DNA of 64,000 bases from NCBI GenBank assembly GCA_008632985.1, contig QPGO01000084.1, positions 248,001-312,000 of the forward strand, written 5' to 3'. Shown here in pieces: positions 7,254-59,900 of this stretch. The number at the start of each line of letters is the position of its first letter. Position 1 is the stretch's first letter. The position numbers were made by a program, and so were the translations under genes. Source of the stretch: Psammoneis japonica. Lineage: Eukaryota. Below the pieces are notes generated by a model. The model worked only from the letters and a program-made list of their open reading frames with translations, was not told the DNA's origin and made no database searches.

Positions 7254-7643
7254 GACGCGTTCCAGCTCTAGGTGGGACCTCGTACTACTGAACTGTGACA
7301 TCGATAGTTTTTTGGATCGCACCGTATGTCGCGCACGTAGAATTGTACGAGACTTTTGTGAAATTTTGTATCATTTTGTGGTACACTTATTGAGCGATCC
7401 GTCCAACAACTTTTGACATTTTTTGTTACAGCGCGATTCTATAATGTCTTAAGAATCGCGCAGGGCAGGCGTATTTGCAAAAATGTCGAGTGGCAAGAGG
7501 CATAATTGTACCACAAACTTGGCCGTTTATTTGATGTTGAAGATAAATATATCCGTTAATTAGATTCTCGTACTACGGAGCTCGCACGTAGAATTCTACG
7601 GGCCCAATGTCACACGGAGTCCCACCTAGGACTGGAACCCGTC
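7254..7643. mobile_element. MITE (390 bp), TIR GACGCGTTCCAGnnnTAGGTGGGAC, 4-bp TSD GGAC; least-mutated copy
   Basis: Terminal inverted repeats, GGAC at 7250-7253 and 7644-7647, and full-length similarity to copies at 54280-54669 and 55024-55413. Confidence 0.9.
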
Positions 7644-36799: not shown

Positions 36800-38150
36800 G
36801 ATTTATCTCACAGATGGCATGCTGTACACAAGCATTCCAACCTGACCAGTGCAGCAACTCTTGCCGCTAAAGTTGGGTCCGGCAGTGACATTGACACGAC
36901 TCTGACCCCCACTCATGTTTGTGTCGTTCCCAATGAAGAATTCGCCATCCACAATGAGCTCTCCAGCACGGTGCTGATGCCTGCCATTCTTGATTTGAAC
37001 ACACACGTTTGGCCAGCCGGGAGCAACTGGGGGCTGGGACAACACAAAGTGTCTTTTGTTTCAGCTTCAGGTGTGGTGGTGCAGGAGGTGTCAAGTGGTG
37101 TCTTTCGAGTTCACGAGAAATCCTGCTTGTGGAATGAAAACTGCACCGAAGTTTCGAAAGCATGTTGTTTCAGCGCGCTTGTCGCCAAGTTGGTCTGCTG
37201 TGGATGTGAGCAAGTCTGTGTGTTTGTGTTGCAAATCACAGTGCAGCACAATGACATGATCACTCACCACCAAAGTTTTTGCATTGCTCCCTGCTCGTGT
37301 CTGTTCTTTGGACTCAAGCGCCAGCTGTTCTTGATCGACGATGGAGGTGATTCGGCCTTGCCAATCCCGCATGATTGGAGCGGCACATTTGTCCAAGAGA
37401 CGTCCAACAAAGGAAAAAAATTGCTTGGCAGCCTCCTTGACATCAGGTTTGGGTGGGATGGTTCCATTGAGCAAGTCTTTGAGCAGACTCTCAAAGCTCA
37501 CAGTGAGAATGTCACAAGTCCTTGAGGCCGCGTCCAGTGTCTTGGTGTGCACAACAAAATCCATGGGTTTGGTGAGACGCTTTTTTTCCTTGTGACATGA
37601 TCTCATTGACAGCACCAATGCTTTCCAGATTGGACATTGGCTCAGCTGCGCTGTCATCAAAGTCTGACTGCAAACACATTTTCACTCCTTCTTGAAGTTT
37701 GGCAACTTGGCCACAACCCAACAGCGGCTTGAGCATCCATTCTCACAAACAATGCAGCACCCCACTTTGGACTTGGTCCAATCCAACAGACTGAAGAGAC
37801 TCAACCCCACTTTGGACTTGGTCCAATCCAACAGGCTAAAGAGACTCAACCACTCAATCCTTGACACATGTCACTGTCCCTTGGCCATGAGTGGATGATG
37901 CTTGGCAGCAAAAATGAGCAAGGCCTGAGAAGCGTGGCGGAGTCTGGTTGAAAAATGACATCTTGCAAAAAAGACAAGAGAGCACCAAGTGTTTTCAGTT
38001 GAACAGGGGAATCAAAATCCACAAGACTTGCAATTGGGCCAAGGGTTGACACCTGAGTCAGGGGGGGGCTGCCTCTGGAGCGCATGCGTGTGAGAAGGCA
38101 ATGTGCGACATCACCCAGCGGTGCAGTGTGAAGCACAGATGGCGTGCCAA
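36800..38150 (-). pseudogene. MSH5: MutS homolog MSH5 (meiotic) degraded fragment
   Basis: LSLFSLLDWTKSKVG (duplicated, 45 bp) ... EWMLKPL; VFIPQAGFLV; VQIKNGRH..ELIVDGEFFIGNDT..RVNVTAGPNFSGKSCCTGQVGMLVY (MutS P-loop; consensus SCY is read as SCC). Frameshifts. Confidence 0.75.
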
Positions 38151-38599
38151 TGGGATGAAATGGCGTCATGCAGGCAGGGAACAGGATGGTTCTTGGGGTT
38201 GGATTGGCAAGCTGTGATTCAAGTTTGGTGGAGCAGCAAAGAAGTTGGTCAGCAAGGGATTGATGGTTCTTGGGGTTGGACTGGCAAGTTGTGATTCAAG
38301 TTTGGTGGAGCAATTTCCATTTTGTGCTTGCAGGGTGTGCCCCGGTCATGAGGTCTTGAGTGGGAGGCAGGCAAGCCAGGAGCCAGCAGGAGAGAGAGTG
38401 CAATGAGAGAGTTGTTGAGGGTGAAAGGATGGATGAGAGTGTGGCGGTGATGTGTGGCGGGCCATGGCAGCAGAGGTGATCAAGTTGGTCGGCAAATTGC
38501 AGGTGATGTGTGGTGTGAGGGAGCAGGTTGGGGGGGTGTGGCTGGGGCTGCCCAGTTCATTGTGTTGGTTGAGGGGGGCAACCACCCAGGAGCACGCAC

Positions 38600-39450
38600 A
38601 CATGAGGAGTTCATGTGGAACATCACCTGGCGGCACTGAGGGAGGGGCAGACACGTGAAGCAAGGGTGGAATTGAGTCACACAGGCAGGAAAAGGGATGG
38701 ACTTTGAGTTGGGGTTGGAGAGTTGGGGTTGCAGTTTGGCAGAGCAGTGGGTCAATTGTTCAGCAAGATTTGGCAATTGCAAGGATCAGGCTTTGAAGGC
38801 CCCACTGTGATGGAGTGGAGAAGCGTGGCGGGTCAGGCCAAAGCATTCGGCTGTTGTGCCTTTTGCCAAGCAGTGCTGGCAGTGTGGAGAATGGCCAATG
38901 GTGATGATTGGGTGCAGGCACATGCAGCATGGGCAGCTGGGTGTTGGGAAGAGGATTCAGTGGGCCAGGGAGGGGCTGTTGTGGCAGGGATGGGGTGTTC
39001 TTGGTTGGCGCCAAAAAGAAGGTGGTGGGCACAGCAGCCAGGGGCTCCTGGATGGTCAACAGTGAATGGGATGAGGCAAATGCTGGCATCATTGAGGGCG
39101 GATGTAAGGGTGGCTTGGTGTTGGGTTTCATGGGTTCTGTTGAACTTCCGTTTGGTGCTCACATGGTGTGCCTTGGTGCGAGGGTCAAGGGTGAGGGCAG
39201 ACAAGCCAGGAGCAGGCAATGAAGGAGGTTTGGGGATGGCAACATTGATTGAAAGGTGGCGGTGTCTGAGAGGAGAGGCAGTGGAGGCAGGAGGCAGCTG
39301 GGGTGAGCCAGATGCCCACATCAGCAGGGCGCTTGAGGGAGTGAATGGGGCATCAAGTCAGCGGGTTCATGGTGGATGGCAGATGAGTCAGCGCAGATGC
39401 CGGATGGAGGGGCGAGTGTTTGGAGAGTCACATGTGGGCTGTCTTGGGCG
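38600..39450 (-). mobile_element. Probable non-LTR retrotransposon (CRE/R2-type) restriction-like endonuclease fragment
   Basis: Minus-strand translation gives KRPADVGIWL ... LSINVAIP ... KRKFN ... LIPFTVDHPGAPG, which resembles the RPAD-DV-K..KY-P..VE..G RLE motif order. Confidence 0.5.
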
Positions 39451-39469
39451 GCATTGGACATGGTTGTTT

Positions 39470-40550
39470 TGTCTGCAGGCCTTCTTGAACTTGGAGTTCA
39501 TCCAAAGTGAGCACAACCAATGCCTTCTGCTCCGCGAAGATTGCACGGTCTGCCTGCATGTTGACGATTGTGGCATCATTGCAATGCAGAAGTCCACCAT
39601 TGATCAAGTGATGTCTCAGCCACACAAGAAAGGATTTGAGTTGACAAAAAAGGGCAGTTTCACCGAGTTCTTGGGTGTCAAGTTTGAAAGACAAGATGAT
39701 GGTGCTGTCAAGTTGTTGCAAAAAGGGTTGACAGACAAGATTTTGCTTGCCATTGGCATGATGGACTGCAAACCAAACTTGCTTCTCGCGGCATGTCAAG
39801 CACTTGGCTTTGATGTGGATGGAGATCCTGCGCAGGAGGACCGGAGCTGTCCCTCCATCATTGGAGTGCTCCTGCATCTGTCTGCCAACACCCGTCCTGA
39901 CATCTCCCTTGCCGTCAGTCAGGTTGCACATTTCAATTCCAACCCAAAGCAGTCACACACCACCGTCATCAAGACTCTGGTCTGCTGCTTGAAAAGGGTG
40001 CATGATCAGGGGATGCCGTTGTCTTCAACTGGTTGTTTGGATCTTGACTTGTGGGTTGATGCTGATTTTGCTGGCCTGTGTCACTGTGAAGTGGACTCTC
40101 ATCTGATTTCAGTCAAGTCTTGCACCAGACATCTCATCACTCTCAGCGGATGACCTTTGGTGTGGAAATTTCAGCTCCAGTTGGCCATTTCATGCTCCAC
40201 CCTTGAAGCCAAGCACCAAGCTGCCCTTCATGCTCTTTGGACTCTCCCACCTGTGAAGAACATGTGCGCCTTGAGGTCGTCTCCACCCTGGACATCTCCC
40301 AAGATCTCAGGACCTCTGTTCATGTGCGTGTGTTCAAAGACAATCAAGGTGCTTGCCACCCATGGCTGCCAACCACCACATCATGAACCACACCAAGCAT
40401 TGTCTTGTCAAGTGGCGTTGGCTCAGGTCTCATTGTGACAAGTTCAATGCAATCAAGGTGGAACCAGCTGATCAACTTGCCAATTTTCTTGCCAAGCCTT
40501 TGACTCAAGAGTTTTTCTAGAACAACCCACTGAAGGTCCAAGGGTGGCAG
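39470..40550 (+). mobile_element. Ty1/copia retrotransposon RT and RNase H remnant
   Basis: QSEHNQCL..VCLHVDD (from YVDD), EFLGVKF, CPSIIGVLLHLSANTRPDISLAVSQVAHF, LDLWVDADFAGL, STLEAKH, DNQG, ADQLANFLAKPL. Confidence 0.9.
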
Positions 40551-40663
40551 TGTGTTGTGGCTTGGTCAAGATGTGGGAGCTTTGCTCTGAACTTGTGCCA
40601 ATTGTGTGAGCTTCTCATTTGCAATTTCCTTGTTGGTTGCTGGAATCTGCAAATGAGAGGGAG

Positions 40664-41139
40664 AGTCATGGGTCATCTGTCCACTGACCCAAATTCTCTG
40701 TTGTGTTTGCACTTCTGTTGGTCAGAATTCTGCGGCCGGTGGCTTTGGGGATCACAGGCATTGCGTGGATGTTGGGCCAACCGCAGATTGGTTCAGCAGC
40801 ACTTGGAGGATGATTGCTGTGAAAGTGGTTGACCCTGAAGCTTGTGCTGGTCTCCAGCACAAGTGTGCAGATGAACCTCTGTTTGGCACATTCTCAGCAG
40901 ATTTGTTCTGTGCAGCTTGTGATTTGGTCACTGGTGGTTTTGTGAAAGACTTCTGACCAATTGTTTGTTTTGCTGCTCATCAGCAGATGCTCTCTGCTTG
41001 CATTCTGCCAGAGGCATTGGTCTGGAGCAGACATCCAGTTGATGTGTTGGGAAGGCACTTGGAGCTTCATGGACACACAAGCTTTGACTCCACACCAAAC
41101 TGCACGCCACCATTTGTTTCATCCTTTCTCACCATGACA
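40664..41139 (+). mobile_element. Putative copia 3' LTR preceded by polypurine tract
   Basis: Purine run aaatgagagggag at 40651-40663. Terminal inverted ends agtcatgg...ccatgaca. No matching 5' LTR seen in the window. Confidence 0.5.
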
Positions 41140-42549
41140 TGCTGCCCAATGCATTTTGCCCTCACTGAACCAAAGCTGCATCAAGTCCGAGTGCAAGTCT
41201 GTGTGGATGACAAATTTCCCTCAAAGGGGGTTCCTGCTGCCATGGCGGCAACAGCCACATTGGGAAATGCTGTCTGATCTGCAGATTGGAGCCAGCAGTC
41301 AGAGCCTGAACCTGGAGTGCTGTGGTCAAGCACCACAAGTCAGGGCCAACCCGAGTGGATCATGCAGAGGAAAGTGAAACCAACATGGCAGACAAGAAGC
41401 AAAAACTGACTTTTGATCCCAAGCAACCTTTGCACATTGCACTTTTTCTGCATGCATTTGGCGCTGCTTTAAACCCAACATGAGCAGCCTGTCTGCCAGC
41501 GATGCTTTAAGTTGTCACCCAGAACCAAACAACATTTCGAACAACCCCATGGCGCACACTGCTTGCAACAAAAGGGGGCTCCAATGCCACACGCCAATTC
41601 GATTGCCAGCACAAACAACACATTTGTCAGGATGTGTGGCTTGGTGTCGCCCAACTTGTCATGCCGCTCTTTCACATTTGTGGCCTCATTTTGGCCTTGC
41701 TGTTGACACTGGCCACGGGTGGATTGGCTGTTCTTCTGCCGCAAAGCCAAGTTTAGCGCGGCAAAGTTTTGGCGCCATGCATCCATGTGGGAAAGGCTGC
41801 TTGGACCACACACATGTCCACCATTTGAAGGGGGCCACTCTTGAGGCACAGCCAAGATTTTGTCCATCAGAAGGAGACCCCAACTTTTGTTTTGTTCTGA
41901 GCTGCAGTTCTGGCTTGGTGCCATTGATTCTCAAGGAAATCAAAAACAAAGTCCAAGCTCCCTGTGTTGAGGTGCATGACGTGATGGGAAGCAAGCCATC
42001 AAATGTGTTCCTGCCCAACTGATGGAGAGCACAATTCAGGCACAGTCGGCAAAGGCACGGGTGTGGAGGTTGCCGTTTCAACATGTGTGGACCAAAAATG
42101 AGCTGACACATTTTTGGTCTCGCAGTGGTGTCCGACCATCCTGCAGCATGACTTTCAGAGCCTCGCAGCTGATTTTTGCTGTTGAAGCATGCCATTTCCA
42201 ACGAGCATTCTTTGGATGCTGCATTGACAGGCCTGCCCCTCATGCAACTCCAAATGATGTCAGGCTGAAAAGGCAGTCTTTTGTGTTTGGCTTTCTGGCT
42301 GTCAAGACCGGAGTTGCAATCTCACCTCAAGTGACTCTTGTGCTGTTCCAAAGACACAATTCTTCAAGAGCTGGGTTTAAAACATGCTCCAATTGATCCT
42401 CCAAACAAAAGTGGTTTGCTCACATGGCGTGTGCTCACTTTCCTCCTGCTGACAAGAGTGTGGCTCACAATCAACCCCACCTTTGATCACACCACGGTTT
42501 GGGCATGGCTGTGGAAGAACAGGGTCAAGAAGCACAAGCTGCCGTAGAA

Positions 42550-43433
42550 CAATTTCATCATCTTCTCAAAGTTTGCCCCAGCAACAACCTTGTGTGCTCC
42601 TCTTTGAGGTGTTGCTGACTGCTGGAGAACACAAAGAGGCTGAAAAGATTGCCGAAAAGCATTCTGAGGGACGTCAAACACAAGAATGCCATTTTGCTTG
42701 CAGCTGCGTGATTGTCGATTTTCTCAAATTCAAGCTCAGCATGGGCAAAGGGAAGCAACTGAAGGAAACCCTCTGCAAGGCTCTCATGCTTGACAACATG
42801 GTGCTGCTCCTGCTGCTTGCAGATGTTGATCTTGGACCTCCACCCAAGACGGTGGCACAAGGAAGCACAGGTGAAGCCACTTTGCAAGTGCGGTCTGCCA
42901 TGAAGCATTGGGAAAGAACGGCAGAGGTTTTGGACTTGTTTTGCGCAGCTTGCAGTGTTGAGATGGATCCAAGCCCAATGATGGTGTGTCCATTCTATTT
43001 CAGCCAATGCAAAAGGGATGCACAGTCATCAGACTCCAAGAAGGAGAACACAAGGAAGTTGCAACCAACGTTGTCAACATGCCAGGAACAGGGCTTGCAG
43101 ACTTCAAGCTCCCTCCCGGCATGAAGGACCACAATTCATCCAGGATGGTTTGCTGCATGAGCAGCAATGCCATCGCCAACTCATCCTACGGCGAAGCTGC
43201 GTCTGCCGAGTTTCCATGGGGCCTACTTCTGTCCAGTGGGTGAGTTTGCTGCAGCGCTGTTCCGCTTTTGGTGACGACGAAGAGCCCCACGCATGAGCGC
43301 TACAGCATGCTTCAAGCCTGCCAACATGCGATGCTCCAAATGTAAGATTAGATGGCACTGCAGCACGGATTGTCAACGAAAGGGCTGGAAGAAGCAGCAC
43401 AGGATAATGTGCCCCGAATACCTCAAAAAGTAA
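42550..43433 (+). pseudogene. MYND zinc-finger protein remnant
   Basis: C-terminal CFKPANMRCSKCKIRWHCSTDCQRKGWKKQHRIMC (consensus YCS is read as HCS). The upstream helical region is frameshifted. Confidence 0.7.
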
Positions 43434-45700
43434 GAAGAAGGACGTGTTTTGAATTGCGCCTCTGTTGGGTCTTTCTGCCTATGCTCGTTTAAGACACAGG
43501 GGTTCTTTTAGAAAACACCCACTGTAGGAATATAAGTGATGGTACTACGGTCAACTAGCGGAACCCCTTCCTTCAGCGTGCAGGTGGGCAACCATCAGCT
43601 ACTTCCAGGAGAACTCACAGCGCCGTCACCCAAGTCTTCCAGTCCCAATTGGTGAATGGAATCTTCGCTTCACCAGTCGCCACGACTCCAGCCAGCGTGC
43701 ACCATCTGCGTATGTTATTGTTGGATTCAAAAGTGGTCCCAATGGCGCCCCCCTTTGAATTCGGCATTTTTTATCCGCATCAGAGAAGCTTCCAGAGCAG
43801 TCAGTGTAAAGCACGCCGGACAAAGGTTGTTACAATCAAAGAATATGCATGGCATATTCAATGTCGTTGGGTTCTTTCATACCTTGTTGAATCACCGGGA
43901 TGCCTGAAAAAGGTGATCCGTGAGAACTAAAACGAGCTCGACTCCAGCATTTTTCCACAATCGACTCCTTCATCTGGCTGATTCAACTCCACGTTATCTT
44001 CGTACAAGCTCTACAATACGAGCAGGTCGGGGATTTCTTCGGACATTTGGTTGTACGTCGCTTTAATGTCCCGCATAGAGGAGCAACCCATGCATCGCCA
44101 CCATCCGATAATCGCACTTGAAATTTGCTATTGTCAAGCTTGAACCGTCCAGGTAGAACGGTTCCAATTGATGCACGTCGCTCCTTCCCACCAAATCGCT
44201 TATGGTGAATGCTGACGAAGCCTTCGTCTACCCACCCACCTACCAAACGAGTTACCATGATCATTCAGCCAATGCAATGAGGTCGGTCCGCTGGGAGCAA
44301 TGGTCGAGGTATTGGAAGCGAGCGTATTCAACAGTAACGTGAGTTTGTGAATTTTCGTTATACTTGGTCCAATTGAAAGACACATTGCGTCGCATATATT
44401 CATATGGCGAGTCACATTGAAAGCCTCGATGCATGATTCTATCCACGATCTGAATGTCGGGGGCCACGACTGCTGGGAATACATAGAATCTATGTTGTGC
44501 AGCTTGATATATCTCAACAGTCGCTATTTTCGTCCCAGCTTTTTCCACTGTATTGTAATCTTCATAGTTCATCTGCTCATCATAACGGAGACAAAGGATT
44601 CAATGTAGCATAAGCTGATCCATCCCAACAAGCGAGTTGGGTCAGGGTTGTTCGTTGACCAAGCCAATCTCGTCATCCACGAGCAAAAATGCAATAATGG
44701 AGAAAAGATAAAAGTAGAATGGCCCAAGACATACAAGAGTTTGTGTCGCGCAAGCGAGGCAGCCCTATTGGTATCAGAGTTCCCACCACCGCCACTCTAT
44801 TATCGTAATGCTTCGTGTACTCCTATCATGTACATACCTATAGCCAAACCTTGGCACGATAATACCAAACACCTAGCTTCAATGAATACATTGATATCTA
44901 TTTTATGAACCGTTGTTGGTCACCGGGCTCTACCCATAGGCACATGGAACCAATTGACACGGTAGCGTTTCCTCAAGCACCTACTGTCGTGTCTACGCGC
45001 GAACAAGCAAGAGACGAAGAGTTAGCGTTCATGGTCAACAATCGAAATCATTGCAATTTTAAAACACAACCAGCGAAAGAAACAATACTTCAAAGATTCT
45101 TACCATACAGAAGCATCTTCTTCCGAAACATCCGAGCTTGATCGAGCCCGCGCCTCCTACAGAGCATCGTCCAATCGAGGTGGCACCATTGTCGCGCCCG
45201 GTCCCAAGTCACAGTTCTTTCTCGACCTGCTTTTGCAAGTGCATCCTGAAAAGTGGGAGAACGCAAGAGAGCCCCGTCGGACGCTCATGACGGCAGGGCC
45301 AGGACTTTTAACAAAATTCGCCAAGAAACGAGAAGATGTGGTTTCAGCTTCAAGACTGGACGACAGCCACTCACATGTCCACACCTCGTTTGGAACGTGG
45401 AAGCCACAACAGACTCTGCTTCACGAGAAGTGCGGAATCTCATGTTTGATTGTTTTCCTTGGATGCCGCACTGTTCAGCTACCGTATGCTAGAGTATGAT
45501 GGTACATTCTACGCAGCTTTGGGTCCCAACCCTTAAGTAAATCCAATTGGGCGTGGCAGGCGCGCTCCTGATGAGCGTACAGACCATCACCGCGGTGCCA
45601 TCGATCGCGAGGAATTTGATCAAATCTCGCAGCGACGATGGTGAATGTTGCGACGATACGAAAGTTATCTAAACCTTCGTTTCTGCGAGAACGTATTTGG

Positions 45701-46284
45701 TACCAGTAAAAAACCGAATTGAGTCCTTATGACTGAACTGAGTCCTTATCCGACCCATATGTTGAATCGATCGATAAAATGATGAAAAAACCAAGTAATC
45801 AAACTGTTTTAGTTGCTGTGATAATCTTCAATTGCTGCTGCTTCTGACCATGTGTTTGGATTTGGGTGTTTCAGTTTTCTCCGGCTGCCCGTTGCCGTCG
45901 AACATGGTCGTTTGTATTTTTTGAAGCGGAAACGAGATTCAACAATTCTCATGTAATTTTTTTATCAAGACACGTACATCATATATCCTCACTGCTCCGT
46001 GCTGCTTGCTGATTTGGAGATATGTTGAATTTCTCTGGTACTTGACACGTAGAAATGTACAGGGGGGCCGAATTGAGTCATTGCGCGAAAAAGGTGCAAC
46101 TTTTGCCGCTAGATTAAGCTAATCCCAAGCCCATTTCACAACCGACTGTCATCAAAGAACTCGTTAAGAGATGATGAAAAGCTAGGAAATGCGAAGAAAT
46201 GGTCAGTTTTAGGCCAATGATGGGCAAAAAATGGCCATTCAACACATGGCAAAAATGAGGACTCAACTCGGTTTTTCACCAGTG
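45701..46284. mobile_element. CACTA-like non-autonomous element (~30-bp TIRs)
   Basis: Left end taccagtaaaaaaccgaattgagtccttat versus right-end reverse complement cactggtgaaaaaccgagttgagtcctcat. Internal subterminal copies of gaattgagtc/gagtccttat. TSD is imperfect (tgg/tgt). Confidence 0.6.
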
Positions 46285-46499
46285 TGTTGTCAACCAGCCT
46301 CTGTTTGATGGGAATCCAAATGCATTCTCCACGATTTTGATTGTGTGGCGAGTCATTGCCGATTCAGTCGTCCGTGGCGCCATGTCACGAGCCGATTCTA
46401 CATCCACCACCCATGCGCCGGATTTTCGGCACCAGCTGAGTCAAAGCCGGCGGCCACAAAAAGGCTGAAAAACACAAATCGAAAATGGTGGTTGCACCG

Positions 46500-49400
46500 T
46501 GGTCAGTGCAACAACATGGGTCAAAAGAAAACTTCGTGAACGCAGATGGAGAAAGACCATCAAAGCCAGACCCAGGCATCTCCAATTTGGGGAGAGCCCA
46601 CTTCTGATGAGGACTCAGCACTCGACATGTGAGCATGTTCGTGGTCGCAGTCGGTGGATCAACGACCCCGCCACAAAAGCTTGACAAGAGGCTGGTTGGC
46701 TTGCTTGGGCACAAGGGGAGTCCACCATGGAAGCCACTCAATTTCAGGAAAAAGATCTGCCGACAACAGCAGAAGGTTTCTCAGATTTTTTTGACCATCC
46801 TGAAGACATGGAGCGTGTTGCAGACAAGCTTCAGACAATTTTGAGGAACAGCAACTTGCTGTTTGAGCCAGACTCAAGTGCCGCGGATCTTGACTCTGAC
46901 AGCGATGATGCAGGTGCCAGCGAAGGCAACAATTTTGTCTCTCCACCACCATCCAAGCGCCCCAGAACTGACGAGGACTCCATTGTGGGTCAAGACGACG
47001 ATGACGAATGCGACAAAGATGGCGGCATCAACCGTGTTGAAGATCCTTGGCTCATGGCACAATTGCGGCAATTGGCAAAGGTTGATTTGAGAGCTTTCTC
47101 TGAACTGGAATTTGTTTTGCTTTCAGCGGACCAGAGCAACAGTGTTGGAGACACTGCGGCGATCGTGGAGGCATGCAAGACTCGGGGATTTGAACCATCG
47201 TCCGACACCATCCAGTCTCTCGAGACGATGTCTGTTTTCAAGCTTCGGGCCTCCAGACGGATCATTGAGACTGTTCGTGGTGAATTTGTGGCAACCCAGC
47301 AACACTTCGAACCTTCTGACAATGAACCACTGATTGACTGGCTTGACCAAGTCAAGCAATTTGCAGAAGGCAAGCGATGCGGAGACTGCCACCAACGCAG
47401 CGACTGCGAGCGATGCAGAGAGTCGAGTGAGAGTTTCCTCGAAAGAAACTTCAATCGACTTCAGAATGGCGTGTGCAGCATTGAGGACAGAGCAGCACAA
47501 GTCGTCCGACACGTTCGCCATTGCCGCAACATTTGCTTGTCAAGAATGGGTGGGTTGCTGAATGCACTCGCCCCATTGTTCCTTGGGAGAGCTCTCAAGG
47601 AAGAAGAGTTTGCGCTGGAGTTGACAACTCAAAATCGTGTGCAGCATCTCGACCTGATTGACACTTTCCACCTGAGGTGCAATTTCCAAAAGCACTCTGT
47701 GGTTCAAGATGAATGCGGCAACAACATCATGATTTGCAGTTGCGACGATGACTCCACATTTCATGGTGGCAAGCGTCATGTGCTGCTCGTGACGGCGAAC
47801 TCAGAGGACAAGACACCAAAATTCCATCTTGCAACGACATCGGCTTCCGTGTCAGCGGATGGTGACGGCAACTCTGATCTCAATGTCAAAGCATTGACAG
47901 ATCTTTTTGGAAAAGAGAATGCCCCTCAGTTCTTCCAACACTTTGGCGGAGGATGCTCTGATGATGCTCCTGATGCCTTGGAAACAATGCGAAAAAGTTT
48001 TGAAAAGGCCACGCACCTCATCCCGGAAGAGGCGCGCCTGTTGAATGATGTTGCCAGATGGGCCATTGTTTGGGGCGACCCCTTTCACATTGCAAACTTG
48101 GTGGTCATGTGGGCGTCTCTCGCTGATTTGGAGAAACCGACCGCACCAGCCATCAAGAAGTCCATCACCGACAACTGATGCAGTCATTTTTTGATGCTTT
48201 GAAGGGGAACAGAGGCCTTGCATGTTCTGTTGCAATGGAAATCTGCAAGGAGCATGACTTGCCGACAGTCGTTCCCAAAGCGGCAAGAGAGCGCCAACAA
48301 CGATGGTGTGTCAACCAACGTCAATGCAAACACTTGTTGGAATTGCATGACATGCAGTGTGGCGACACAAGTTTCTTTCTCCTTTTTTGCCAAGAAGTGG
48401 CAAAACATTTGGGAGGATGCCAAAGCAACGCAATGGAACACTGCGGCACGTTGATGAGCATGCCCAAAATTCGACTTGCTCTTCAATTTGAAGCAGAGCT
48501 TGGGTGTTTCTTTGAGCCTGTCATGGCGTGGCACTCCCACACCGGTTTGATCGCGAACATTCCTGGCTTTCGTGTGCTAGAAGTCCGCGCCTTCTTTGTC
48601 AACTTCGAGCTGCCATTTTGGAAAAAGCACGAGTCAAGCCAGCCAAAGCATTCCCCAAGACGTTTGCTGGGCTGTCAGAAATTGAAGATGAGGCGGTGAG
48701 AGATGTGAAACGAGATCAGATCGTCTCTGGTGGAATTGAAGCTGGGTTCAAAGAACTGCTCAAGATGACGAGGCACTGTTTCAGCCCATCCAACATGTCT
48801 TTGGTCCTTGTTGCTGAGCACACACAATGTTTTGCTCGCGCGTTGCTCCGGTTCCTCCATGAAGATTCCGACAACTTGCGATTTGCTGTGGAGGATGCGG
48901 GCATGTCACAATTCAATGAGCCAGCAGGGCTTGAAGATGAGCTCACCAAGTTGCCAGAGGTCGACATTGACAGCGTTGTTCATTGTCTTCAGCAACTCGG
49001 ATTGTCAAAGCATCGTGCTTTTTCCAAAATCAAGAAGCTCTCATTGGATGAAGAAAATGCCAGCCACCTTTTTGATTTTAAGGAGGCACACCCAGCTGTG
49101 TTCACGACATTGCATTCTGCACTTCATTGTTCATTGTCTTCAGCAACTCGGATTGTCAAAGCATCGCGCTTTTTCCGAAAGCAAGAAGCTCTCATTGGAT
49201 GAAGAAAATGCCGGCCACCTTTTTGATTTTGAGGAGGCATGTCCAGCTGCACTCATGACATTGCATTCCGCATTTGGGCTCTTGCCATCAGCAATTCGCC
49301 TGGCGGAGCAAACGATGGCGATGCTCCGAGGGCATCTTGGACTCAAGACTGCAACTTCATCGCACACGAGTGCAGACCAACGCAAGCGGCATTCAATGAA

Positions 49401-50166
49401 TGTTGAGCATGACAACCAAGTGGCAAGGCAGAAGAATGTTGAGAACCGACATGACAAACGCCCGACTGGTGGTTTCAAGCATGAGAAAAGCAAGTCGGAG
49501 CAGCGAATGGTTGGGGAGCAAATGATGGAGTCAATGGGCAGATGCAAGGACGAAGTGTTGGCTGAAGAGCTGACCAAAGCTGAATTTGACAGCATCAAAA
49601 CAAGACACTTGAATGACAAGGGTGTCATGGGGAAAGACAAAACACGGATTGAAGCCCAAAATGCAAGGGCTCTAGAGAAGGTGGCCCAAAAAAAAAAGCC
49701 TGGCAAGATGGCGATCGATTTTGAGATTGAAGGCTCGGAAGAAACTGTGGACAACGACGACAATTGGGCTGCATTCGAGCAAGCCGAGCTCAACAAACGT
49801 CGCAAGGAGCTTGCCACCCAAGCCTTTTGGGCAAGCCAGTCACTGCAAGACATTCTCATGGTGTGCCAAGAAGTCTTTCCAGGGATGCAAAAGCTCCAGC
49901 CAGGTGGCAGGGGGAAGCTCGCCAAGACGGGCATGAAAGCTCTGACAAAAGATTGGCTGTCTGCTGAAGGAGCTGCTGCAAAAACAAACACAGCTGCTGC
50001 AGCTGGACTTGAGTGTGAAAAGTCTGAGTCCAGCGCAGCGAAGCGGAAAGAGGCAATGCAGGGTTTGTTTGATGTGGCTGGGTCGGAAATTGGCCAGCAC
50101 TGCTTTGAAGCTTGCAGCAATGCACGACACACTGTGCTGTGTTTGCTTGGCAGGAATCATGTGTGA
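46500..50166 (+). mobile_element. Degraded DDE transposase, hAT-like, inside TpA-depleted domain D5 (46200-50380)
   Basis: Motif order DDST ... GGCSDDA ... WGDPFHIANLVV (C/DxxH..NL) ... RQQRW ... FGLLPSAIRLAEQ (P.S...E) fits hAT. Frameshifts, including a 151-bp tandem duplication at 48976-49272. No Tyr in the 483-aa ORF 46727-48178. Confidence 0.6.
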
Positions 50167-53100
50167 TCCCAATGGTGTGTGTTGCTTCTCCCCAATCACC
50201 AGTCGCATGCTCAGTGAACACTCGCACGAGATTCGAAGTTGGGTGCTGTGGGGCAGGTCGTCTCGGAGTGAAAAATGTCTGTTTTGTTTTCACAAAGCAT
50301 GGCCTGTCGAGCTGCAATGAGCGTGCCATGATCTTGGGATTGCAAACCACCACAAATGTTGCCACCCTTGCTAATCACCTCTGCTCTAGAGTAGCCCTCT
50401 AGTGGGCCCTCTAGATAGAGGATGCCGCAACGTGCAACGTCCCTGTCATCGCAACGCCTGTAGAAATGGCACGAGCGCTCGTGCAAGTTTTACTCGTGAC
50501 TTCGAATCACCAGTCGAGAATGTATGTTGACTCATTCGATTGAATGAGTCACGACTCGGGAATGAAAATGGATCCATTCGACTAGAATTTATGAAAATAA
50601 AAATAGTTAGACTTTGACCCCCCACTCGAGACAGAAATACACAAGATATGAACCTTATCGGTCTCCTACCCTTTAAAACAATGTCTTGCGAGAATAGAAT
50701 AGGTGTGTATTGTTCATGGTGTGAGGTATTTGAAAATGGAACTAACTTTTCGCGGAGCACCTTTTTACTGTACACGTGAAAGTACGAGGGACGATTTTTA
50801 GTGATAGCTCTATCTAACGCAACCTTCTACTTGCGACCCCAAAAGTTATCGGGAACTTCGTATCGGCTGGAAATGTATTTTGGAAAACCAGGCCTGCGGG
50901 GAGCATTGACCACTTGTCTTTCTTTGTGGGTGTGGGTGTGTGCCGTTGCATGCTGTATTGCCTGTACGTACGTAGGGCCCTACCGCCGGGGCCGGTATTG
51001 TGCGTGGCGGCTGAGTGGCGTGGCCACCGCACCGGTGACGCGGATGACCGTTATATTTGATGTCTCATGCCATTTTTGGGGCTGTAGCGAGGTGCACGGA
51101 CACTCTTTTTTTTCCAATTTATCGCCATAAATAGCGCATCGCACAAACTCACTTATTGTTCGATATGTTTTCCCAAATATGACTGTTTCGTGTAGAATTC
51201 ACGACAAATTATCTTTGTTTATAACTGAATACAGGCATCGCTGATCTAATCGAAATCGCGCAGCGCGCACATCTAGTGTGCAATAGGAATCATTCGGGTC
51301 CTGAGAGTCTATGGCTCCAACTTCCCGTAGAAAGACCTCAAACATAAATTTTATTTAAGACTGGATAATAAATAAATTTGGGTGTTCGCAAAGATTTGAC
51401 TACTTGGACTGCTCAGTTTTTGGTTGTCTCGGCGCGTGCTTCTTCGTGTTATTTGCGCATCGCGACAATGGCGAAACACCGTTCCGCTGCAACCTGCTCA
51501 ACAACGACGTCTCAGTAGCTCGACAAATCATCAAAAACGAACCAATCACACTAAGACGCGTCAAATGGCAGTAATTTGTCGAGCCACTGAACCGAGTTGA
51601 CGAAGAAATGACGATTTGCAGTGACGCCTTCACGTCTTCGTCGACACGACAAATGATGATGCCATGCAAGATCGATGGAAGGCAGATGGAACATTGGATC
51701 CGACGTATTCGACTTCACGTTTGACTTGACAACTCTCCATCATCGTGTAAGGTGGGAACTTTTTGCAGTGCGCTGTCTCAAAACATGAACTTTGCTGCGT
51801 GCCCTCGTTCGATGTGCGCACGTTGAGTGAAAAGCAAATTAAAAATTGGCGTTTCGGCCAATGGCATGACCCTGTGGACAAGATTCTCCTGAACGTGCCG
51901 CCAAGAAGTGCACCTCTTCCGGGGTGGCTGGAGCAGGTGATGATGAGAAGTGAGCACTGAAGTTCACACTAGACCAGAAGCAACTGCCAGTTACGACCAC
52001 AATGAGTTTTGTCAATGGAGTGTCAGTGTTGTTTGCATTTCAGCAGTTTGGTTTATCTGGTCATAGAACCGTCCAAGGGTGAGCAAACACAAGGAGTTTG
52101 TGGTTGCATCTTGCTTGATGCCGCACTCTGAGGTTCCAAACACTGGAAGCATCAGAACAAACTAGATCATCAAAAGCACTGTGCAGCACAGGCCGCTCGT
52201 CACTTGGCACAGTCACACTTCAAGAATGCCATTCACCACCACATGTTGCGTTTGGCAAGTTGCAAGTCATGCTGGATGGATTTGATCTGGGCCACGCACT
52301 CGTTTCTCAACAAACTCAACGAGCATCGACGACAAGGCCAACTGCTCAAGCTTGACGAGAAGAAGTGTTTCGAGTTCAGAGATGAACTTGAGGTCCATGC
52401 CCAAGGGATCCAACCAGGAGAAACACTGCTCTGTTAAAAACCATTCTCCTGAAACAATGCGAGGAGTTAAAAGGAAGGAGTGTCAGCAGCAGGATTGGCA
52501 TCAATGCAAACAAGTTCTTCTAAAAAATTTCGTCCTCTGTGTCCACTGACATTTAATGTGCAGCACTGAACAATGCACAGTCCTCTTCTGCCTGCACTTG
52601 CCTTGTTGCTGCCGTGTCAATGACGATGGCGTTTTAGTCTCTCGGCAATTGTGCCCGTTGCTCATCATCTTCTCCTTGTGTCGTTGCATTGTTTTGGGTT
52701 GATTGATTGATGAGTGCTGATGACAGCGCGAGAACTGAAGCCGATTTTTTAGTCGGCAGAAAATTTGTCTTAAATGTGCATTTTGAATGTGTTTTGATGA
52801 TGGGGTCTTTCAGTGCGAAGTTGGAGCCATGGAGTCATCACGTGGAAATTGTGCAGGAGAGCACTAAAAGACAATTGTCATCAGTCTGTCCATCCGTCCG
52901 TGTGCGAATGTCAACTTCTCGGGAAATCAATTGAAATGCTGTCTGATTGACGGCATTTTGATCCACACAGTGAAGGCCAGTGCCATCAACCAGACAGCAT
53001 TTCAACTGAGTTCCCGAAAAGTCATTGGCTCCAATCACTCTCTCGCATGACATTGTGTGCATTTCCACACGATTTTGTGTTTTTCCTTGTGCAAAATGTC

Positions 53101-53435
53101 AATTGTGACCCACCCAACATTTTCGAATGACTCCTGTTGCATTGTTTTTCATGTTGTTTCCACAAGCATTGCATTGCTGATGAACCCAAACAATTTTGTT
53201 TCCACATTTGACCGCAAATGCAGCGTTTGTCATTTTCATGAATGAGGTCCGTGAGACATGAAGACACGTCGGACATTTTTCTGCATGCGCTGCTGACATC
53301 ATCTGTTGCTGTTTTAACCAAGCCTTCGACTCCAAACGAGGCCGGTGTCAGGCAGTTCTGACGCATGCCAAGAAGTGCCAGTTCCTCACCACGGAGATGC
53401 TCACCAAATGCTCGCCGCATCTGTTTGCATCAGTT

Positions 53436-53773
53436 GATGCATTCCAGACGCAGGTGGGAATCCGTGTGACATTGGGCCCATGGACTTCTGCGTGCGAGCT
53501 CCGCAGTAAAATCACACGGCAATTAAAACGTCAATGATCGCCAACAGAAAATGAGGCAATTTTGCGAACGCACAAACTTGCACATGATTGAAGTGCATCA
53601 TTTTTTACTTGGCCAGTTGCACTCTTCAGACATTGAAGAATGTGGCTGGCGCATTGTTGTTTCTACAAATTTGTCATGCAAAACGTCTGGGGTGCGAAAC
53701 ATGCGACGGATGACAAAAATTGTTGTTGTCACACGTCAGCACTGCGAGCTCCCACCCAGGGCTGGAACGCGTC
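53436..53773. mobile_element. Diverged member of the GAC-TIR MITE family, TSD AGTT/AGTC
   Basis: Ends gatgcattccagacgcaggtggga...tcccacccagggctggaacgcgtc; shares tccgtgtgacattgggccc with the other copies. Confidence 0.7.
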
Positions 53774-54279
53774 AGTCGCGCGAATGCTTCCCGCCCCACC
53801 CGACCCCCTTCACACCCTTCCTCATCGACGCCCAAATTTCGCCAAGTCGAAAATTCCACTGTGCTGTGGCGCACTGCAGAGCAATGGCGATCGACTTGAG
53901 ACATCACACACTGAGCCGCACGTGGAAATCCACTGAGATGACTTGATGTGTTTTTCGTGTGAGTCGCCTTGGCATCTGCGGCCGTTTCTCACAACTTCTT
54001 CCAGATTTAAAACAATGGAAGCAGCACCATGCGACAACATTGAGTCCATGTGATCATGTCAGGTGAAGCAAATGGCAAAATGGTGTGGACTTGTGGCCAA
54101 AATGGACTTGTTGCATTCACAGGATTGTTCGTGCACCATGCAAACTCAGTGCATGAGGCAGCCAAACTGGATCCACACGACACACCAATGAGCTCAAAGA
54201 CCAACTTAAACATGGAGGATTTAATCGGCTCATTGTCACGCAGTTTGATCTTAGACTGAGGGGTCAAAATGGCCCAAGA

Positions 54280-54669
54280 GACGTGTTCCAGGTCCAGGTG
54301 GGACCTCGCACTGCTGAGCTGTGACATCGACAGTTTTTTGAATCACGTCGCATGTCCCGCACGCAGATTTCTACGTGATTTTTTCGACATTTTGTGTCAT
54401 TTTATAGTGCACTCATTGAGCGATCCATCCAACAACTTTTGACATTTTTTGTCACAGCGCGATTCTGCAATGTCTTAAGAATCGCGCAGGGCAGGCGCGT
54501 TTGTAAAAACGTCGAGTGGCAAGAGGCACAATTGCACCACAAACTTGGCTGTTCATTTGATGTTGAAGACAAATGCATCCATTGATTAAATTCTCTTGTT
54601 GCGGAGCTCGCACACAGAATTCTGAGGCTCCAATGTCACACGGAGTCCCGCCCAGGGCTGGAACACGTC
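54280..54669 (+). mobile_element. GAC-TIR MITE copy 2 (TA-mutated), TSD AAGA/GAGA
   Basis: Colinear with 7254-7643 over its full length. Confidence 0.9.
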
Positions 54670-55023
54670 GAGAAAAGGATCTAAAACTTGACAATTGACA
54701 GCTTCTGAAAAAACTCCACAAGTCTGCGATTGCAGCACTGGACAAAAGAGAAATGAACTTCACAGACTGACCAACACATGACAGCTCGATTGCTCTTCTT
54801 TTTGTTGTCATGCGGTTGAAATTTGATGCCGTTGCGGCCATCATTTTCATGCTCTGTGTGCCACCATGTTGTCGATGCGTGTTGTTTTCTGTTTTCTGGG
54901 CATTGCCGTCAGTTTTGGTCAGTTTTGATGGGGGGGGGGATTGTGTTTGGTTTGAAAGAGTGATGTGGCAGTTCGCACATGACGGAGAGACTGATGCAAC
55001 GCATTCAACGAAAAAGTCGTGGT

Positions 55024-55413
55024 GACGCGTTCCAGCCCCAGGTGGGACTCCGTGTGACATTGGGCCCGCAGAATTCTGCGTGCGAGCTCCGCAGCACGAG
55101 AATTTGGCCAATGGACACATTTGTCTTCAACATCAAATGAACGGCCAAGTTTGTGGTGCAATTGTGCCTCTTGCACCTCGACATTTTTGCAAATGCGCCT
55201 GCCCTGCGCGATTCTCAAGACATCACAGAATCGCGCTGTGACAAAAAATGTCAAAAGTTGTTGGACAGATCGCTCAATGAGTGCACCGTAAAATGGCACA
55301 AAATGTCAAAAAAATCACGCAGAAATCCATGTGCGCGACATGCAACATGATTCAAAAAACCATCGATGTCACAGTTCAGCAGTGCGAGGTCCCACCTGGA
55401 CCTGGAGCGCGTC
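55024..55413 (-). mobile_element. GAC-TIR MITE copy 3 (inverted, TA-mutated), TSD TGGT/TGGC
   Basis: Reverse complement is colinear with 7254-7643. Confidence 0.9.
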
Positions 55414-56973
55414 TGGCGAGCATTTGGTGAGCATCTCCGTGGTGAGGAATTGGTGCTTCTCCGCAAACCCACCCAGAAAGACCCTCATGATGTCATTGAT
55501 GACGCAATTTCAACTCGCACCAAATGTTTGAACAAAAGTCACCCAAACGCAGAGTTGTCGCGTTTCTTTGCCGACAAAGTCCAACAAACAAGTGATCGTC
55601 CGGAACAACAAATGATGACCCCTGCACATTTTTCAACATGCCATGCCGGCAACCCCAATTTTTGAGAACTTTCGAGCTCTCCTGAAAAACCGTGCCACGT
55701 GCAGGGCTCGCCGCTCTGGCGTTTGTGTTTTGTTGTCCTGCACGATTGCTCACACACCAGACTTTGTTGGTGAAGAAACAAGACAACTGCATTTTTGCAA
55801 CTTTTGTTCGAACATTCAGCCCAAGTTGAAGTCACGTCATGAATGACATCATGTTCTGTGCGCATCACAGTTGACTGACTGCATCCTCGCAGTGAGCCCT
55901 GCTGCATTGCTGCAAGTGTTTCTTCGCACCCATGCAGCAAAAAAAAATCTGCAATGTTTCATTGTCTCCACTCGTGAACACAATGCTCGCGAAAATGACA
56001 CGAAAAACAACAAACACTGGATGTGCGCGCCGCGTGATTTCAATTGGATCAGCAAGCCCTGCACCCGTCGCGGGGAATTTGTCGATTTTTTGGGATGTGT
56101 CCCCACGACCTCTCATGTCCTCAATGATCATTCTGCAAATCTGAAAAGTTCATCTGCACTCAGACGGACAACCCGACTGCCCGACTGCCCGACGACTGCC
56201 CAACCTCCCGACTGCCCAACTGCCGGACCCACACGAAAAAGTCTGCAATCACCAACCACTGAGTGGTCAATGAAAATGGGGGGTGTGTGATTACACGTGG
56301 AAGCATGACGTTGGGCTCCATAGCAGCTTGGAAACTGGCCAACACCGACGACGACGACTCGAGCTCCGATGACTTGTTTCAGATTTTGCGTCCGACTCGC
56401 GCGGGTTTTTCGTTTTTCGACGTTTATTCAAATGTTATATCTCAAATTTTTATATACAGCATTCCTTTTTGTAAATGTGCATAATATTGTACCGTTTTAT
56501 TCATTATATATATGTTAAAACCATGCCACTACAGGTTTGTACGTACCATACAGTAGCACACGTAGAGCAGATCGCGTAATTTTGAATGCAACAGTAATTT
56601 TATGACGATCTGTATACACATATGCTTTTAGCTGATTTTCACGTTGTGCAGCCACAATGGCATGCGAACGAATCATCGTTCCCGCTGTGCTGCTTCGTCG
56701 TTGCCAGTTCCATTAGAACACATAGCGCCGCATAGATAAAGCTTGAACGGAAGCGTGGTCGTATCAGTCCGCAGCTCTATTGAGAGTTCTGAATGCCAGG
56801 CGAAGAGGCGAACCCAAACCTTTTTGATTTGTTCGTTGGGTGTCGGCAGGTTGATTGATCGATTGATTGGTACGTTTGCGAAGTGCTTGTCCCCGTATTG
56901 TAGTGTCTTGTATGCTTGCTTTATCTTCTTGTTCTTTCTAACCATGCTCTTATTCTCTAGTCGTAGACACAGA

Positions 56974-59900
56974 ATGAAGGATCCTACTTCACACGCATCG
57001 TCAGGGAGGACAGGAGCACTTTCTGTAGGCGTCTCTATGATCGATGATGATATGGCTAGCGAGAACATCGCGGCAATCGCAGCACGTACTAACAAGCTAG
57101 AAGCAATAACCACAAGACGAATCGCTGAACCGCTCCAGTCACAAGAAAATCGGGAAGTGCAAACCACACCCAGCGCTTTTCGCCGCGCAACGAGACCAGC
57201 TCCAAGGCATCGACCGAATTTGTTTGGTAGGCGGGTCGATTACCGGACACTCGAGGCGGCAAGGGCTGGATTGTCAAAGGCAATGTCTAGAGTATCGAAA
57301 ATATCAAACATCTACTATCTGACACAAGACAGAGTAGTACAAGAAGGAGGAACTGCTGGTCTTGATGACACTGCTCGTGAAGCAGCGCAAGGGCTTGTAC
57401 GACTCGCCGCAATCAATACCGAGACCGGTCAGCCACCAAGAGACGAGTCCCGTACCCCAGATGTTCAACAAGCGGCTACAGACACTTCTATCCTCCAAGC
57501 TACAGGCTCTAAGCGAACTCACGAAGCCAGTATCCATCAGGGAGTGAAGCTAGCGGATACGAGCAATGCAATCGTCCAAACCACAGGCTCGGAGCGACGA
57601 AATGCAGCCCGCTTCTATCAAGGAGCTCAGCAAGCGACTACGAACAGTGCCACCGTCCGAGCCACCGGCTCCGAGCGAAATGAATCACGCCCTGCTTTGG
57701 AGGCGAATGGCAAATCCACTGCCGATACCGTCGATGAAACAGCACTAGTTGATAATCCCAGCGAGCACGTGCTGGGCATGACTCCTGCTCGTCATCGCTG
57801 CTCCTCTAGAACACGCACGTCAGAGCAAGGTGACTATTCATCCCGTGTGGCTTCTGGCTCTTTGCAAGATCCCAACCAAGGAGCAACGTCAGTTGAAGAC
57901 GATGGAACAGCGCAAAGGCTTGTACGACTCGCCGCAATCAATACCGAGACCGGTCAGCCACCAAGAGACAAGTCCCGTACCCCAGATGTTCAACGAGCGG
58001 CTACAGACACTTCTATCCTCCAAGCTACAGGCTCTAAGCGAACTCACGAAGCCAGTATCCATCAGGGAGTGAAGCTAGCGAATACGAGCAATGCAATCGT
58101 CCAAACCACAGGCTCGGAGCGACGAAATGCAGCCCGCTTCTATCAAGGAGCTCAGCAAGCGACTACGAACAGTGCCACCGTCCGAGCCACCGGCTCCGAG
58201 CGAAATGAATCACGCCCTGCTTTGGAGGCGAATGGCAAATCCACTGCCGATACCGTCGACGAAACAGCACTAGTTGATAATCCCAGCGAGCACGTGCTGG
58301 GCATGACTCCTGCTCGTCATCGCTGCTCCTCTAGAACACGCACGTCAGAGCAAGGTGACTATTCATCCCGTGTGGCTTCTGGCTCTTTGCAAGATCCCAA
58401 CCAAGGAGCAACGTCAGTTGAAGACGATGGAACAGCGCAAAGGCTTGTACGACTCGCCGCAATCAATACCGAGACCGGTCAGCCACCAAGAGACAAGTCC
58501 CGTACCCCAGATGTTCAACGAGCGGTACAGACACTACTATCCTCCAAGCTACAGGCTCTAAGCGAACTCACGAAGCCAGTATCCATCAGGGAGTGAAGCT
58601 AGCGAATACGAGCAATGCAATCGTCCAAAGCACAGGCTCGGAGCGACGAAATGCAGCCCGCTTCTATCAAGGAGCTCAGCAAGCGACTACGAACAGTGCC
58701 ACCGTCCGAGCCACCGGCTCCGAGCGAAATGAATCACGCCCTGCTTTGGAGGCGAATGGCAAATCCACTGCCGATACCGTCGATGAAACAGCACTAGTTG
58801 ATAATCCCAGCGAACACGTGCTGGGCATGACTCCTGCTCGTCATCGCCGCTCCTCTAGAAAACGCACGTCAGAGCAAGGTGACTATTCATCCCGTGTGGC
58901 TTCTGGCTCTTTGCAAGATCCCAACCAAGGAGCAACGTCAGTTGAAGACGATGGAACAACGAAAGTGCCGAATGGAATCACTCTGCAATACAACGGCAAA
59001 TGTCAAGTGAGATTTCCTCACGACAGCAGGACCTGCTATATTGGTACATTTGACTCACTCTCACTCGCCGTTGTTGCTCAGAACACGGGCCGTACGAAGA
59101 TGAAAGAGTTTCATGATTCCAAGGGGAATGAAAAGCCGCTAACTTCAGCCGATCACAAGCATGGCGTGAAATTTGTCAAGGAAGCTTGCCGTACAGCAGT
59201 CCAACAGTACCTACAAGATCACCCAGAAGAACTCGATAAGGTATCGAAACGGTCACGGACAAGAGCGCAAGAAGGCAAAGACAGGTACGCTTCGGATTCG
59301 AACGAAGATCATATTGGGAAGAAGCGCACTTGGAAAATGGAATCAAAAACAGATACAAAGAATCTCAGACGCAGCTCGCGCGCCAAAAAAGCACGAACAG
59401 TTTCGGACTTCCCAACCAAGCAGCGCGATACTTCATCACGCACCTTATCAATAGGGAAACGTGCGTCCTCGGCTAGTTCGGAGGGTCTTCCTTCAGACGT
59501 ATCACATTTGCGTGCTGGAGCAGAGCAATTGAGCACTCACTATCTAGGTGGCTTCACCATTGGCCTTCCTGCGCCTTCAAAAGGGGAGCCGTACGCTGAA
59601 GAAAGCGCATGGCGTTTGCATAATCCAACGGTGCCTCCTGACCAGAGCAAATTCGGCAAGTTGCCGCTGCAATCGCTCCCACCACCTCCAAGCCTACCAC
59701 AGTTTCCACACACTGGCCTTTGTGAATGGACGTGGGATGAAGAATCTCGAGTTCTCCTTGGCAATTTCAGAAAGAATAAAAGCAGTAAGGTGGAAGTCAG
59801 TAAGGAGGATGAAGAGTTCCTGTTGCGCATGATGGAACGCAACGATATTTCAGTTATTAGCGAAGGACTGGCCGATGATCTCGATGGTGCGATCTGGACC

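Follow-up and report, generated by a model that had tools for sequence, protein, structure and literature searches.

Two tandem copies of a 151-bp unit lie within a broken transposase-like gene of the diatom Psammoneis japonica, and at two sites one copy reads CA where the other reads TG. Was the ancestral dinucleotide at these sites TA or CG, and what process rewrote it differently in the two copies? The locus lies in a 64,000-nt stretch of DNA, hereafter the window (C81:248001-312000 of a 91.4-Mb assembly in 597 contigs), to which all positions refer unless another contig is named. An initial annotation of the window had proposed a TA ancestor and a mutational process that acts on either strand. 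Here, this proposal is weighed against homologous proteins, other copies of the element in the genome, and a pair of likely alleles.

The Element and Its Transposase-Like Gene

The duplication sits inside a DNA element on the forward strand (45513..50880) that is bounded by its dispersed copies; its right end is approximate, as another repeat follows. Dinucleotide counts delimit a core at 46400..50371 from which TA has been erased. In 3851 nt of this core (46500-50350), TA occurs 3 times against 237 expected and CG 162 times against 242 expected. The three surviving TA steps stand in CTAG, TTAA, and CTAG contexts, that is, in TAR on both strands. By TA counts and copy comparison, the right subterminal region (50372..50880) keeps its TA, as does a MITE-like insertion in the left end of the element (45704..46296; inverted arms 45706-45730 and 46255-46279). 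The arms of this MITE are 25 bp long, and it has ~20 dispersed matches that are up to 97% identical. A second short repeat of ~350 bp adjoins the element at 50886-51233; its dispersed matches number over 40, most of them at 87-97%. Five non-autonomous derivatives of 1.4 kb (L049, L050, L053, L054, and L031) carry ~17-bp inverted ends and share the left end of the window element, the right TIR of which was not located. While hAT elements create an 8-bp target-site duplication, none was seen at the five derivatives, the flanks of which are often eroded. For the insertion in the window, the genome yielded neither an allele nor an empty site. A neighboring TLC-domain gene has named homologs from Cylindrotheca, Fragilariopsis, Grammatophora, Attheya, and others, all of which we take to be diatoms.

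The transposase-like gene (46727..50166, forward strand) is broken into several frames and shares D, D, DxxH, RW, and E positions with its homologs. Its four translated pieces total 1140 residues, the repeat region being counted twice, and contain no Tyr, compared to 2.7% Tyr in 36 homologs; the transposase is thus Tyr-free, as had been claimed. A word-indexed homolog search with the frame of a sister copy on contig C331 found nothing, whereas a HMMER search with the same frame yielded 151 homologs of up to 1474 aa. Among the 150 homologs listed, the 38 whose best stretch covers or nears the 151-bp unit were aligned over it, and 36 mostly long homologs were used for a second alignment (A1). 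The homologs share, in order, an invariant D (21/21), a second D (21/21), a DxxH-like DPFH, RW, and E (25/25), all assigned by eye. In hAT transposases, a DDE triad is described together with a CxxH motif and a conserved Trp (PMC4763223). The D, D, DPFH, RW, and E of the element follow this hAT-type order, as judged by eye, and TIRs are present in its derivatives. No match to the transposase families in Pfam was obtained among the 36 alignment members or 12 long homologs, a PDB sequence search with the transposase-like protein gave no match, and the sole Atlas result was a 0.76 lead to FAM200-ZBED5 RNase-like. The gene product is likely a transposase, and its assignment to hAT is only a lead. 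The homolog set (P0002-P0151) is a large eukaryotic family of 1000-1500 aa proteins without a Pfam transposase match and with unnamed Atlas clusters, and it possibly represents an undescribed hAT-related lineage.

The Tandem Duplication

The tandem that had been placed at 48976..49272 is borne out by TRF, which reports a period of 151, 2.0 copies, 91% matches, and a score of 503 at 48976-49272, far beyond chance. With the C331 sister copy as a guide, the bounds are refined to 48974-49275, comprising copy A (48974..49124) and copy B (49125..49275), both of 151 bp on the forward strand. The two units differ at 15/151 positions, which rules out misassembly as the origin of the tandem. The letters on which the original observation rested are present in both units: CAC at 49089-91 and TGT at 49099-101 in A, and TGT at 49240-42 and CAC at 49250-52 in B. 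The C331 sister copy has one 151-bp unit only, and its frame is open. Because the extra 151 bp of the window copy shift the reading frame, this copy of the gene has been dead since the duplication. The repeat itself is an ordinary duplication, and its value is that of a witness of TA erosion.

TA Loss in Copies and Alleles

The direction of change can be read from a partial copy on contig C47, which corresponds to window 46498-47931 and keeps 32 TA steps in 1433 nt; the window keeps 0 of them and C331 keeps 5. In the window, these 32 steps have become 18 CA, 12 TG, and 2 CG, and in C331 they are found as 17 TG, 9 CA, and 1 AA besides the 5 kept. A frameshift common to C47 and C331 is absent from the window, and thus the window copy and C331 lost their TA steps separately. 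At the 18 sites where the window and C331 differ as CA versus TG, C47 reads TA at 11, CG at 2, CA at 3, and TG at 2.

Collinearity between C47 and C331 extends over 18.6 kb (C331:2-18626 vs C47:234293-252484), including a 4.7-kb flank that is 98.8% identical, and for these reasons the two are likely alleles rather than a segmental duplicate. Seven collinear blocks were kept for comparison and nine shorter internal-repeat matches were left out, giving 12,098 aligned nt (12.1 kb). The 326 TA steps of C47 appear in C331 as TG (151), CA (130), unchanged (36), or other (9), while in the reverse direction only 4/41 TA steps of C331 are changed in C47. CG was lost in C331 at 152/632 steps, such that C331 lost 86% of its TA and 24% of its CG, and TA loss on the C47 allele amounts to ~10%. 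In the neighboring 4.7-kb flank, the genes of which are unannotated, 3/101 TA steps are changed. Transitions from C47 to C331 comprise 186 A>G and 179 T>C, against 93 C>T and 92 G>A. The C47/C331 blocks are the best polarized data set found for TA erasure. Other near-identical pairs occur on different contigs (L007 1633-9867/L008 1764-10000, 99%; L067/L068, identical scores), which suggests that the assembly holds both haplotypes in places.

The two outcomes are balanced between the alleles (TG 151 vs CA 130, p=0.23) and are not arranged in strand runs (runs test p=0.22), with same-strand neighbors making up 126/237 TA-TA pairs and ~50% at all distances. Strand-coordinated tracts had been hinted at by the presence of CA in the window at 9/11 discordant sites and were rejected (runs p=0.51, 0.62, and 0.22); no distance class deviates. 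Off-target changes at 1-3 nt from another event fall on the same strand in 11/15 cases, which is not significant (p=0.12). The loss of TA produced TG and CA equally often, took place in separate copies, and was confined to blocks of mobile DNA. The process is therefore strand-symmetric, as first suggested, and its recurrence is supported by the separate loss of TA in separate copies after insertion. The proposed lack of a link to retrotranscription is likewise supported by the TIR-bearing nature of the DNA element and by the occurrence of both directions of change within copy B. The further claim that the process is not linked to transcription goes too far: the symmetry of TG and CA changes excludes a one-way transcription bias, whereas sense-plus-antisense transcription or RNA guidance is compatible with the data.

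Changes in the allele pair also follow a neighbor rule. Counted per strand, A>G occurs at 111/171 TAC, 87/181 TAT, 49/147 TAG, and 37/153 TAA, and TAY and TAR differ with p=1e-12. By the 5′ neighbor, A>G affects 284/652 TA, 51/1941 CA, 20/1860 AA, and 9/1664 GA, so that 284 of the 364 A>G events are at TA and 80 are at CA, AA, or GA. The off-target events favor a 3′ pyrimidine as well (CAY 44/908 vs CAR 7/1033; RAY 28/1573 vs RAR 1/1951). The preference is for 5′-T-A-Y, with a weak spill-over to CAY, AAY, and GAC.

Ancestral State of the Discordant Sites

The most direct site in the repeat had been overlooked. At 49079..49080 (forward strand), copy A retains the sole TA left in the repeat, in a TTAA context; C331 has TA there too, and B has TG at 49230-31.

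Site 1 reads CAC (His) in A (49089..49091, forward strand), TGT (Cys) in B (49240..49242, forward strand), and CAT in C331. It falls in a conserved F-x-x-x-Y-P-x-I-F motif of the homologs, where the residues over 38 aligned homologs are Y 30, H 4, F 3, C 1, and R 0. These counts favor TAT as the ancestral codon and support the Tyr ancestor proposed for this site. At site 2, A reads TGTGT (49097..49101, forward strand), B reads TGCAC (49248..49252, forward strand), and C331 reads CATGT, and the 38 homologs have I 20, L 13, V 4, and A 1. A GTA ancestor had been proposed here, and in this respect the homologs disagree: ATA (Ile) is likelier, and GTA would have a place only as an intermediate. Site 2 is most simply read as two adjacent TA steps in GCT ATA TTC (Ala-Ile-Phe), which would have had three outcomes in three copies: TGTG in A, TGCA in B, and CATG in C331. 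In B, the first TA would have gone to TG and the second to CA, with an additional off-target T>C. This pattern of B (GGAATATA to GGAGTGCA) is seen once in the C47/C331 allele pair, while CATG, the state of C331, is seen at 0/14 fully resolved TATA in that pair.

A CG ancestor would require Arg at site 1 (0/38) and Ala at site 2 (1/38), and on this account the ancestors of both discordant sites were most likely TA and not CG, as had been claimed. The pattern of the three copies has a probability of ~0.08 from a TA ancestor versus 0.002 from a CG ancestor. For site 1, a His ancestor followed by a two-step flip in B is a possible alternative. C331 and the distant in-genome copies, C30 and the near-identical C421/C84, all have CA at this site, the codon in C30, C421, and C84 being CAC, and at both discordant sites A equals C331 and B alone differs. 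Flips between CA and TG account for at most 18/1947 CA/TG sites in the allele pair. At other columns where the homologs have a Tyr majority, the residues in the window are C, H, and C at three and F, F, F, and T at four. Among the additional T>C changes, those at 49252 and 49122 fit the AAT class. The change at 49091 corresponds to GAT when read from the lower strand, for which 0/393 events were counted, so that it either falls outside the rule or points to TAC as the ancestral codon. Searches of the genome turned up no wholly intact copy that spans the repeat: C47 ends at window 47931, and C30, C421, and C84 are TA-erased.

Timing of Erosion Relative to the Duplication

Private changes number 5 in A, 10 in B, and 9 nt in C331, and the pairwise distances (A-B 15 nt, A-C331 14 nt, and B-C331 19 nt) leave little shared branch. 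By our own arithmetic, the 256 differences in 3549 nt between the window and C331 correspond to ~5.4 nt expected per lineage per unit, and the 55 CA/TG sites in the same 3549 nt to 2.3 expected per unit, compared to 2 between A and B. Both A and B read TG at all three CA/TG sites where C331 reads CA, and they share two other letters. On the basis of these branch lengths, the split between A and B likely, though not provably, dates to about the same time as that between C331 and the copy in the window, and most of the erosion came later. The claim that mutation followed duplication is thus likely, and the part that stands short of proof is the order itself, since the fusion of two copies or alleles that had diverged beforehand would leave the same picture. 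Whether the duplication or such a join came first, the changes arose independently from TA.

Further detail comes from run X1, which may be the assembly's own sample and for which the figures were read from depth columns, among the positions listed. All contig depth carries A at 49231 and C at 49256 (131/131), whereas at 49224, 49240, 49241, and 49252 the C331-type letters make up only 84.6 of the depth. A contig ~46 deep is B-like at 49240, 49241, and 49252 but still has A at 49231 and C at 49256. This B-like sequence would have had site 1 already resolved while the slow TTAA site and a CG were still intact, which suggests at least two time points of change in the B lineage.

Targeting of TA Erosion

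TA-poor blocks alternate with spared DNA within the window. Besides the element, blocks at 5001-9500, 13501-14000, 17501-27500, 37001-43000, and 52001-56000 are TA-erased, and several of them are strongly CG-poor. One such block contains a weak RVT_2 match (38708-40150). At 56740-60311, where TA is not erased, there are two long ORFs with overlapping ends (618 and 629 aa) that are A-rich and T-poor, the first of which has an AGAO-like N2 match. The distant C30 copy (L038 ~1000-3100) adjoins frames with adenine-glycosylase-like motifs, probably by coincidence; we take these frames to resemble a MutY-type adenine glycosylase.

The right ~500 bp of the element (window 50372-50880; L006 6800-7600; L038 3000-3800) retains its TA steps in the window and in C30 and a part of them in C331, where it forms a TA island inside an erased block and shares 20/31 of the window's TA. 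This right subterminal part also has the highest contig depth in run X1. In the high-copy MITE, all 8 TA are kept in 6/11 copies compared, and the eroded copies lie mostly in TA-poor flanks, with MITE age as a confounder. The low-copy body of the element is erased, yet its high-copy right end and the high-copy MITEs largely escape; copy number by itself would thus not determine what is hit, and erosion seems to depend instead on location within a silenced block. The loss of 86% versus ~10% of TA on likely alleles points to an episodic activity set by chromatin.

Origin of the Changes

Taken together, the comparisons make it probable that the discordant sites were TA at the time of duplication and that each was converted separately afterwards by a process acting on both strands, likely an adenine deaminase that acts on chromosomal transposon DNA. 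In such a process, the A of 5′-TA(Y) would be deaminated to inosine by a TadA/ADAT-like enzyme, and the inosine would be read as G at replication, fixing A to G. The enzyme would be recruited episodically to silenced, presumably CG-methylated transposon bodies, where CG would decay alongside TA at a lower rate. Deaminases of the PF00383 type are universal, and the 9 PF00383 matches in the genome are candidates only. TadA is described as editing a UAC loop, and engineered forms as preferring A next to pyrimidines (PMC12027372); in RNA data for TadA8.20 from the same source, editing of UAG (17.5%) exceeds that of UAC (11.6%).

A symmetric TA step cannot distinguish A-to-G from T-to-C chemistry. 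Since a TA step reads the same on both strands, T>C at R-T-A describes the data just as well, and thymine oxidation (of the 5hmU/5fU type) or error-prone repair synthesis that places G opposite T at 5′-RTA in silenced DNA would produce the same outcome. The allele with the heavy TA loss also shows increased CG decay (152 vs at most 33), and neighboring TA and CG events lean weakly to one strand (60/104), as repair patches could give. A polymerase-eta-like WA motif, however, predicts AA above CA and many transversions, and AA (20/1860) is not above CA (51/1941); the TA events are also without strand clustering. We regard a process directed at T as unlikely, though worthy of attention. It is rather unlikely that the tandem arose by unequal exchange or template switching between two copies or alleles after each had undergone the same erosion on its own. 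The distance between A and B is comparable to their distances to C331, run X1 holds a B-like variant that is not identical to the B of the window, and likely alleles in this genome differ strongly in erosion. Nevertheless, the letters that A and B share against C331 speak against such a join, a DNA search of the own genome (5 matches) gave no other close copy of the region, and the star shape would follow just as readily from a duplication that took place upon insertion or shortly afterwards.

The remaining explanations are far less credible. CpG decay is real in the unit, where the comparison of A and B places changes at 49016, 49062, and 49118 in A and at 49126 and 49256 in B (five in all), and the CA/TG sites at 48977-78 and 49058-59 may be of CG origin; it is also real in C331, as described above. 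As the source of both discordant sites, with one copy decaying to TG and the other to CA, it is very improbable: besides the residues it would require, it would have to remove the step from all three close copies, which is likely for TA and unlikely for CG at the loss rates of C331, and it is unable to remove TA. Editing of the ADAR type at the RNA or cDNA stage, fixed through reverse transcription, is less plausible still and can practically be set aside. A change of A to G with a 5′ U/T preference is ADAR-like according to the Bigelowiella natans preprint (bioRxiv 10.64898/2026.01.13.699255), but the element has TIRs in its derivatives and a transposase-like protein, both directions of change occur within one 151-bp copy, and 281 TA sites distinguish likely alleles of a single fixed insertion, which implies that the changes arose in place. 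Separate conversion of ancestral TA, with an adenine deaminase as the likely agent, is therefore the reading that we prefer.

Relation to Known Systems

The closest parallel comes from the alga B. natans, where integrated DNA of NCLDVs and virophages is reported to be hypermutated at TpA in mutation-accumulation lines (Mettrop et al., bioRxiv 10.64898/2026.01.13.699255). As described in that preprint, all changes are at TpA, the de novo mutation rate is raised ~1000-fold, 11/15 lines are affected, and an ADAT2-like A-deaminase is proposed and unproven; TpA-poor CDS are enriched in DDE and reverse-transcriptase domains (bioRxiv 10.64898/2026.01.13.699255). In both algae, as far as the preprint describes it, TpA goes to TpG or CpA by strand, and on both strands (here 281/326 in the allele pair, and 30/32 plus 2 CG in the window), and foreign or mobile DNA is hit while the flank is spared. 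Unevenness between lineages, seen there in 11/15 lines, may have a counterpart here in the likely alleles (281/326 vs 4/41). The diatom differs in its host lineage, in its target (a DNA transposon and not a virus), in the near-completeness of the erasure, and in the 3′ rule TAC>TAT>TAG>TAA, the CAY/AAY/GAC spill-over, and the CG decay alongside. The restriction of all B. natans changes to TpA contrasts with 284/364 at TA here, a looser pattern that is compatible with the former given near-saturation. The rate in B. natans was measured in lines, whereas the diatom evidence is comparative only. No report of TpA erasure in diatoms was found in the literature searched, which leaves most subscription journals outside, and supplements to the B. 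natans preprint may hold flanking-base data. In the literature searched, TA rewriting has so far been described only in this one unrelated alga.

The defense of fungi offers an instructive counterpart. RIP of Neurospora destroys transposons in place by C>T transitions in same-strand runs, creating TA, and it depends on the RID/DIM-2 methyltransferases and is timed to the sexual stage. The diatom process resembles RIP in its dense, dinucleotide-specific transitions that ruin transposons in place. Unlike RIP, it removes TA rather than creating it, and A>G and T>C outnumber C>T and G>A; it also has no same-strand runs, and it appears to spare high-copy MITEs and the high-copy right end while erasing a low-copy body. 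The decay of 5-methylcytosine (CpG) is similar in that a symmetric dinucleotide goes to TG or CA, and it occurs in the same blocks; it is slower here than the erasure of TA and does not account for Tyr-to-His/Cys changes. TadA/ADAT2 and adenine base editors share with the diatom process the change of A to G and a preference for a 5′ T and flanking pyrimidines, UAC being given as the natural TadA context (PMC12027372). The natural substrate of TadA/ADAT2 is tRNA, and the context ranking in that source differs from the TAC>TAT>TAG>TAA of the diatom (PMC12027372).

Significance

Mutation in silenced repeats is expected to run toward A+T, as in CpG decay and RIP; here, it runs in the opposite direction and is nearly complete. 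This is a second, distant algal lineage with TA erasure, now on DNA transposons. Through the tandem pair, the residues of the homologs, and the allele pair, what looked like an oddity of composition resolves into polarized events with a neighbor rule, and this rule can be used for screening candidate enzymes. TA-erased elements lose Tyr and stop codons, and consequently they mimic long open frames, escape Pfam, and are over-dated by divergence.

As a tentative proposal, for which we claim less than for the conversion itself, diatoms may possess a genome defense that is the chemical mirror of RIP. A DNA adenine deaminase would act on 5′-TAY in double-stranded transposon DNA, one base at a time on either strand; it would become active in silenced chromatin, separately for each allele, and not through the pairing of repeats. 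Such a system may go back to a common ancestry with the Bigelowiella process across SAR, and its enzyme would be a natural adenine base editor capable of acting on double strands. If a natural enzyme does convert A to G in genomic DNA, it would matter both for genome defense and for base editing.
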